From assembly GCF_003334355.1 (NCBI RefSeq), contig NZ_QOWP01000002.1: 64,000 nucleotides of DNA, one strand, 5' to 3'. The notes below the pieces were generated by a model. The model was not told where the DNA came from, did not search any database, and was given only the letters and a program-made list of their open reading frames with translations. This DNA is from Escherichia coli (GTDB taxonomy: Bacteria > Pseudomonadota > Gammaproteobacteria > Enterobacterales > Enterobacteriaceae). Positions 17,761 through 17,833 of this stretch are shown in pieces; positions within the stretch are counted from its first letter, which is position 1, and every line of letters starts with the position of its first letter. Both the position numbers and the translations under genes were made by a program.

Positions 17761-17833
17761 ACCACTACATCTTGCTCCTGTTAACCCGCTATCATTACCG
17801 TTTTCCTCCAGCGGGTTTAACAGGAGTCCTCGC

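Follow-up and report, generated by a model that had tools for sequence, protein, structure and literature searches.

The genes yeiH and nfo of Escherichia coli lie on the same strand, separated by a gap of 73 nt that contains a long inverted repeat reaching into the ribosome-binding site of nfo. The junction raises the question of which RNA can fold this repeat into a hairpin, and what such a hairpin would do to the expression of endonuclease IV, the product of nfo. The order of genes in the region is yeiE (minus strand), yeiH, nfo, and yeiI, and yeiH and nfo are members of different regulons that answer different signals. The induction of nfo by SoxRS has been described (PMC6267047). In Salmonella, activity of the yeiH promoter cannot be detected unless sulfite is present, when YeiE activates it (10.1101/2025.07.27.662810), and Salmonella yeiH was recently shown to be a sulfite- and YeiE-induced determinant of sulfite resistance. 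Positions are given in the window, which is the whole stretch of 64,000 nucleotides that was analysed (contig NZ_QOWP01000002.1); the addition of 2,233,006 converts them to NC_000913.3 coordinates, in which the nfo ATG at 17834 is at 2250840.

The transcription of yeiH starts at position 16694 (G), 17 nt upstream of its ATG, according to Kim et al. 2012 (2247722 in version-2 coordinates), and at position 16693 (2249699), one base lower, according to SMRT-Cappable-seq. The divergent yeiE/yeiH control region (16640–16711) is very A+T-rich, and a start site of yeiE is tabulated as well.

Structure of the hairpin

The inverted repeat is predicted to fold into a hairpin with 16 base pairs and a 19-nt loop (Table 1). 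The same hairpin is the dominant structure when the RNA is folded in a 141-nt context, in which a 17th pair is formed by G17774 and U17827. Its folding energy, the calculation of which was proposed in an earlier note on this DNA, is −23.3 kcal/mol according to RNAfold, compared with −7.7 ± 2.2 kcal/mol for 200 dinucleotide shuffles, none of which is as stable (z = −7.09). The stem described in the earlier note, formed by 17775–17790 and 17810–17826, agrees with both the sequence and the fold. The single unpaired base, taken there for an A, is a U of the 3' arm, where TTT (17816–17818) faces AA (17783–17784). As had been claimed, the Shine-Dalgarno sequence of nfo is located in the 3' arm, with all of AGGAG paired, and the distance from it to the ATG is 7 nt and not 8.

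The base of the stem is positioned 14 nt downstream of the yeiH TAA, and the sequence that follows the stem is UCCUCGCAUG. The remark in the earlier note that a U-tract is missing holds for this tail, and a terminator scan of the region found nothing there. A search of the region against Rfam gave only two chance-level matches, with E = 3.5 and 5.2, and both families are eukaryotic. When folded as DNA, the hairpin is stable too, with a calculated energy of −14 kcal/mol (z = −7.2). The hairpin region (201 bases) is present at one site per genome, with at least 99% identity, in every one of 5426 complete E. coli genomes, and a search of the window gave a single match without a second copy. With one place per genome, the element does not have the copy number of REP/BIME or other dispersed palindromic repeats.

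Table 1. Features of the yeiH–nfo junction in window coordinates
Feature	Position	Strand	Sequence and remarks
yeiH CDS	16711..17760	+	ORF list and NC_000913.3 annotation; gene upstream of nfo
Candidate SoxS/MarA/Rob box	17752..17771	+	ATCGCATAAACCACTACATC; overlaps the yeiH stop codon and the nfo −35 region (class II layout)
Hairpin 5' arm	17775..17790	+	ctcctgttaacccgct; anti-Shine-Dalgarno CUCCUG plus UUAACCCGCU; spacer between the −35 region and −10, upstream of the nfo start
nfo −10 hexamer TATCAT	17790..17795	+	Pairing of the 5' arm ends with its first T; T1, A2, T3, and T6 invariant in 29 species
Hairpin loop, 19 nt	17791..17809	+	Holds most of −10, the nfo start site, and the C-rich tract UCCUCC (17804–17809)
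nfo-yeiI start site	17800..17801	+	17800 (G), or 17801 should the numbering of the published table begin at 0; SMRT-Cappable-seq
Hairpin 3' arm	17810..17826	+	agcgggtttaacaggag; one bulged U (one of 17816–18); belongs to nfo's own 5' UTR
nfo Shine-Dalgarno AGGAG	17822..17826	+	7 nt before ATG; all bases paired in the hairpin
nfo CDS (endonuclease IV)	17834..18691	+	ORF list and NC_000913.3 annotation

The nfo promoter and start site are located inside the hairpin

A full-length primary transcript that extends from 2250806 to 2252832 on the forward strand and covers b2159|b2160 has been recorded in two entries by SMRT-Cappable-seq (Yan et al. 2018, PMC6131387). Position 2250806 corresponds to 17800 in the window, which is in the loop of the hairpin, 5–6 nt downstream of the −10 hexamer. 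The nfo promoter is thus embedded in the hairpin, with the candidate activator box 5' of the stem, the 5' arm serving as the spacer, and the −10 hexamer and the start site in the loop. SMRT-Cappable-seq is the only source we found that gives an nfo start. Neither the nfo start nor the yeiH 3' end has an entry in Adams 2021, the Salmonella MarA/SoxS paper, the MarA 2025 paper, or Cappable-seq 2016, and the nfo start is absent from Kim et al. 2012, though the start of yeiH is present there.

The nfo-yeiI transcript spans 17800–19826 in the window and was labelled a novel operon. The coding sequence of nfo ends at 18691, and that of yeiI begins at 18694. The 3' end of the transcript is located directly after a REP-like inverted repeat, gccggat...atccggc (19790–19823), without a U-tract. 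A start site attributed to yeiI is positioned within the nfo coding sequence, at 18436 (Kim et al. 2012, Table S1: 2249464 in version-2 coordinates; 2 reads, 258 nt 5' of yeiI).

The candidate SoxS/MarA/Rob box differs from the consensus AYnGCACnnWnnRYYAAAY in two positions, and matches of this quality occur in the window at chance rate (20 found, 18 expected). The box is located 18 bp upstream of the −10 hexamer and is kept as GCATAAACCACTACAT in many genera, and no −35 hexamer of the nfo promoter can be recognised. The position of the box, its conservation, and the start site fit a class II SoxS/MarA/Rob promoter, even if the match to the box alone is not significant in the window. In promoters of this class, the activator box reportedly overlaps the −35 region, and the layout at nfo resembles that of class II SoxS promoters. 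A scan for consensus promoters and terminators missed the real nfo promoter, which has no −35. The sole promoter match of the scan, TTAACA-17-TACATT (17817–17845), extends over the 3' arm and the nfo start codon; it has no supporting start-site data and was rejected. In genomic SELEX, the yeiH>nfo spacer was among the sites bound by RpoD holoenzyme alone, with no hexamers assigned (Shimada et al. 2014, PMC3946193). This suggests that, in vitro, SoxS may be dispensable for the binding of RNA polymerase at 17761–17833.

The region around the start site (17800–17809) contains a conserved T-run (gTTTTcc), followed by a C-rich tract, which is UCCUCC in E. coli and CCCCC in many genera. This tract looks like an anti-Shine-Dalgarno sequence, and a weak pairing between it and AGGAG is conceivable in the mRNA from nfo's own promoter. 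The tract is missing from the short-loop versions in Enterobacter, Lelliottia, and Leclercia.

The mRNA made from nfo's own promoter begins with (G)UUUUCCUCCAGCGGGUUUAACAGGAG... and carries the 3' arm without the 5' arm, and the computed stability of this RNA is no greater than that of shuffled sequences (z = −0.5). Since the start site is in the loop, the hairpin cannot regulate this mRNA, and it can form only in RNA begun upstream, that is in yeiH transcripts, or in DNA. A general post-transcriptional control of endonuclease IV, as suggested in the earlier note, is not supported by a start at 17800 and a −10 hexamer at 17790–17795, which leave only the 3' arm to the mRNA. The earlier note had also asked whether mapped nfo starts would place the 5' arm in the mRNA; the published start excludes the arm, which, for nfo's own mRNA only, corresponds to the first half of the refutation that the note had named.

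A gate on nfo's own mRNA, in the form of a thermometer or a structure opened by an sRNA or a protein, would require an unmapped start further upstream. The complete pairing of the Shine-Dalgarno sequence would suit such a riboregulator, and the context of the 3' arm, AACAGGAG, presumably resembles motifs of RNA-binding regulators. Nevertheless, the sole tabulated start of the nfo unit is inside the loop, a conserved −10 hexamer adjoins the end of the 5' arm, no Rfam family matches, the own mRNA lacks significant structure, and a thermometer would have to be far less stable than −23 kcal/mol. We therefore consider a riboregulator of this kind very improbable.

Conservation of the hairpin in Enterobacteriaceae

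In total, 80 nfo loci were gathered from other species, and yeiH is immediately upstream of nfo in most Enterobacterales. The alignment set comprised 29 Enterobacteriaceae with short yeiH–nfo spacers (59–106 nt); there was no Klebsiella among the best 120 Nfo clusters. A hairpin around the −10 hexamer is present in 33 of the 34 Enterobacteriaceae species examined, which belong to more than 15 genera; the species with a hairpin include Salmonella, Scandinavium, Kosakonia, and Entomohabitans in addition to the alignment set. Within the alignment set, a hairpin enclosing −10 is predicted in all 29 loci, with energies from −18 to −34 kcal/mol. The segment from 18 nt 5' of −10 to the ATG has a median z of −4.2, and in 24 of the 29 loci at most 5 of 200 shuffles are as good.

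Positions 1, 2, 3, and 6 of the TATNAT hexamer are invariant in the 29 species, a pattern characteristic of sigma-70 −10 elements, and the hexamer always adjoins the 5' arm. The cores AACCCGC in the 5' arm and GCGGGTT in the 3' arm are near-invariant, and the loop and the flanks drift. The loop of 19 nt in E. coli compares with 7–49 nt in relatives, and the two arm cores are 16 to 56 nt apart. Of the 24 loci with a recognisable Shine-Dalgarno sequence, 22 have at least three of its four bases paired.

In the alignment of the 29 species to covariance model R1, 82.5% of cells are paired, compared with 80.5% in shuffles, and the core helix reaches 92.9%. Ten cells are changed on both sides, a number attained by 11 of 500 shuffles. 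The formal covariation is weak and not significant because the stem core is nearly invariant, and with such a core both arms could also be held by sequence-specific constraints. The counts of G-U (32) and A-C (21) combinations neither single out the strand nor demonstrate an element that works as RNA. Compensatory changes are found in L007 (ACCCGG/CCGGGT) and L022 (CTGTCAAACCC/GGGTTTGACAG). Three independent extensions of the inner stem match the −10 variant of their own lineage: TATC/GATA in Cedecea, TATG/CATA in Entomohabitans, and TATACTC/GAGTATG in the Citrobacter-Kluyvera group. The outer helix of Entomohabitans has another sequence (TCTC.../...GAGA), and the Shine-Dalgarno sequence is still paired. 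The compensatory changes, the remodelled helices, and the extensions thus provide evidence for selection on pairing that is qualitative.

The weak covariation statistics are what a chance or neutral repeat without function would give. Such a repeat is hard to reconcile with a z of −7 in E. coli, with its retention in 33 of 34 species and more than 15 genera while the intergenic loops are otherwise unalignable, and with several lineages having independently remodelled the hairpin and kept the stem, and we give it hardly any credence. The repeat could also act as DNA, either as half-sites of a regulator that clamps the region of −10 and the start site, or as a cruciform, extruded under supercoiling, that affects how the promoter opens. 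The repeat exactly brackets the −10 hexamer and the start site, its cores are as invariant across genera as sequence-specific recognition would make them, the DNA hairpin is stable, as given above, and the G-U and A-C counts are compatible with action at the DNA level. However, a fixed dimeric operator would not tolerate a core spacing that varies between 16 and 56 nt, and this variation favours a nucleic-acid stem over a dimeric protein operator, long loops disfavour cruciform extrusion, and the lineage-specific extensions and compensatory changes keep the pairing and not a motif. We know of no transcription factor with such a half-site, and a function at the level of DNA appears improbable to us.

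The locus of Intestinirhabdus (L085) has a 271-nt yeiH–nfo spacer (130–400), which has kept the 5' arm along with a TATTAT hexamer but has a long, highly structured, G+C-rich insert in place of the 3' part; the folding energy of this spacer is −107 kcal/mol.

Predicted effect of the hairpin on RNA entering from yeiH

The two kinds of RNA that may carry the nfo ribosome-binding site differ in its computed accessibility. For each of the 29 species, the segment between −15 and +4 relative to the nfo start costs more energy to open when the RNA comes from read-through than when it is made from nfo's own promoter; the median difference is +8.8 kcal/mol, and that in E. coli is +5.7 kcal/mol. The computed opening cost in the own nfo mRNA of E. 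coli is still 8.1 kcal/mol. A block on read-through transcripts from yeiH, which was one part of the interpretation in the earlier note, is plausible in view of the 5' arm upstream of the start, the Shine-Dalgarno sequence in the 3' arm, and the opening cost in all 29 species; the other part, the control of nfo's own mRNA, is not.

We hold it moderately probable that the hairpin is an insulator at the yeiH–nfo junction that acts only on RNA coming from upstream. Transcripts from nfo's own promoter, beginning at about 17800, would contain the 3' arm only and expose the ribosome-binding site. Transcripts derived from yeiH would contain both arms, 19 nt apart, and the stem would close once the 3' arm leaves the polymerase. 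The nfo Shine-Dalgarno sequence would then be buried in a stem of about −23 kcal/mol, and nfo would not be translated from yeiH RNA. From its geometry, we do not expect a ribosome terminating at the yeiH stop codon to melt the stem, because the base of the stem is 14 nt further downstream. The untranslated read-through RNA would probably be ended by Rho inside nfo and then trimmed back to the hairpin, which may also serve as a protective 3' end of the yeiH mRNA. The structure, its conservation, and the positions of the promoter and the start site are observed, and the translational block, the polarity by Rho, and the protection of the 3' end are what we infer. Where relatives have a U-rich tail after the stem, their version of the hairpin is probably itself a terminator of transcription. 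The net effect would be that the output of endonuclease IV tracks its own SoxS-dependent promoter and not the sulfite- and YeiE-dependent promoter of yeiH.

The transcription units from SMRT-Cappable-seq, in which a unit comprises the genes fully covered by the longest read, contain yeiH as a one-gene unit and nfo-yeiI as a separate one. These data contain no yeiH–nfo co-transcript unit; they come from M9 or rich medium, and yeiH expression is low in these media. A translational block may have few transcripts to act on if those of yeiH end ahead of nfo anyway. In the Citrobacter/Kluyvera group, the hairpin is kept and there is no AGGAG; therefore, the sequestration of the Shine-Dalgarno sequence is not universal. 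The lineages have in common a strong stem just 5' of the nfo ATG that is present only on upstream-derived RNA. This shared property points to an insulator that would work through occlusion of the ribosome-binding site, termination, or both.

Possible relation of the hairpin to yeiH terminators

The hairpin may instead be simply the 3'-end structure of the yeiH mRNA, either a terminator of a weak or unusual kind or an obstacle to 3' exonucleases. The overlap with the promoter and the Shine-Dalgarno sequence would then be incidental in so short a spacer, and the masking of the ribosome-binding site would have no selected role. The statement in the earlier note that the hairpin is not a simple terminator applies to E. 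coli and fails for the Citrobacter and Enterobacter cloacae versions, which have T-rich tails. In Citrobacter/Kluyvera, the element consists of a 14-bp stem, a 9-nt loop, and a T-rich tail, without AGGAG. The versions from Citrobacter werkmanii, C. youngae, and Enterobacter cloacae pass the terminator scan and, judged by sequence, look like intrinsic terminators; in Enterobacter cloacae the stem is followed by UCUUUUUAUG. U-rich stretches are located between the stem and the ATG in several genera, and canonical terminators follow yeiH in Yersinia, Serratia, Edwardsiella, Providencia, and Moellerella, with the terminator arm of Edwardsiella, CCCTGTTAACC, resembling the 5' arm of E. coli. Furthermore, yeiH is monocistronic in SMRT-Cappable-seq, and the stem-loop at the end of the nfo-yeiI transcript likewise has no U-tract. 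Against a mere 3'-end structure, E. coli lacks the U-tract and has a 19-nt loop, loops reach 49 nt in relatives, and the outer helix pairs an anti-Shine-Dalgarno with the Shine-Dalgarno sequence in most species and is rebuilt with a different sequence in Entomohabitans. We consider it rather unlikely that the hairpin is nothing more than the end of the yeiH mRNA; that role is compatible with an insulator and does not exclude it.

An intrinsic terminator was also considered for E. coli itself and rejected: the stem is adequate, but the loop of 19 nt exceeds the criterion of about 3–8 nt and there is no U-tract. The supplement text of PMC6131387 contains no termination site at 22508xx other than the nfo entries. 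A rule by which each spacer in Enterobacterales would have either a terminator or a ribosome-binding-site hairpin holds only in part and was discarded, as a simple scan found neither in several families.

In four Citrobacter and Kluyvera loci (L004, L006, L013, and L015), the sole purine-rich stretch within 1–40 nt 5' of nfo is GGCGGG, and it is located in the 3' arm. The stems of L004, L006, and L015 have 14 continuous pairs that take in the whole −10 hexamer (TATACT), and that of L013 is slightly different. In L004 and L006, TTTAATTT directly follows the stem. In Edwardsiella (L058 and L071), a canonical yeiH terminator, CCCTGTTAACC-(3 nt)-GGTTAGCAGGG followed by a T-run, is located about 70–110 nt 5' of nfo. 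It shares the 10-mer CCTGTTAACC with the 5' arm of E. coli, for which a rough estimate of the chance probability is about 0.02.

The resemblance between these sequences hints that the Enterobacteriaceae hairpin may be derived from an ancestral yeiH terminator. In such a descent, the nfo −10 hexamer and start site would have come into the loop, and the 3' arm would have fused with the Shine-Dalgarno sequence, in Enterobacteriaceae. The product would be a dual-level insulator with a promoter in its loop, which would end and protect the yeiH mRNA, silence nfo on read-through RNA, and be absent from the SoxS-driven mRNA. We put forward this extended form of the insulator as a tentative possibility. 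In a bolder variant, the block would be leaky or regulated, and sulfite stress would feed the synthesis of some endonuclease IV through yeiH read-through; bisulfite damages DNA.

Implications and comparison with known systems

If the hairpin forms only on upstream RNA, two stress regulons would be uncoupled at a junction too short to hold a terminator and a promoter side by side. Any reporter construct or deletion in which the 5' arm is included would then differ in behaviour from the native nfo mRNA. Insertions in yeiH, or strong promoters placed upstream, would be expected to have no polar effect on the translation of nfo. Other junctions could be searched for the same layout, in which an activator box is followed by a 5' arm that forms the spacer, by a loop with the −10 hexamer and the start site, and by a 3' arm with the Shine-Dalgarno sequence. 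A dual-level insulator, if true, would be a compact means of uncoupling tightly packed same-strand genes of different regulons, and it may occur at other junctions. The yeiH–nfo hairpin is a tidy regulatory layout at a classic stress gene and not a new principle.

We found no description of a hairpin at yeiH–nfo in the literature, and the Rfam covariance models, which include riboswitch, leader, and thermometer families, gave no meaningful match to it. The promoter resembles class II SoxS/MarA/Rob promoters in its box-like 20-mer 18 bp from −10, in the absence of a −35 hexamer, and in the membership of nfo in the SoxRS regulon. This likeness concerns the promoter within the hairpin and not the hairpin itself; to our knowledge, a conserved complementarity between the promoter spacer and the 5' UTR has not been described for class II SoxS promoters. 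Intrinsic terminators and REP-like 3'-end stems share with the nfo hairpin a G+C-rich stem close behind a stop codon (at nfo, 14 nt from the yeiH TAA), the U-rich tails of the versions in relatives, and a possible protection of the yeiH 3' end. Unlike them, the E. coli hairpin has a 19-nt loop and no U-tract, encloses a working promoter, and is single-copy.

The closest parallels are found in insertion sequences. IS200 combines protection from upstream transcription with a Shine-Dalgarno sequence sequestered in a stem, as may happen at nfo; it uses two separate inverted repeats, with the sequestering stem within the gene's own mRNA, whereas at nfo one hairpin, absent from the own mRNA, may do both. 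IS10 and IS50 are protected from outside transcription by the fold-back inhibition of read-through transcripts, a protection that reportedly has been documented in both elements and reviewed since. In these elements, as in the nfo hairpin, the gene's own promoter fires between two complementary segments; transcripts from outside bring the upstream segment, which pairs with the ribosome-binding site, and the native transcript lacks this segment. The nfo hairpin has the Shine-Dalgarno sequence in the stem, the anti-Shine-Dalgarno arm 5' of the start, and a native RNA that is more accessible, the last by computation. In contrast to IS10 and IS50, nfo is a single-copy chromosomal stress gene and not a transposase gene, the upstream RNA comes from a defined neighbour, yeiH, and the promoter is probably one that depends on an activator (SoxS, class II). 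The block, which belongs to the biology of IS10 and IS50, is predicted for nfo.
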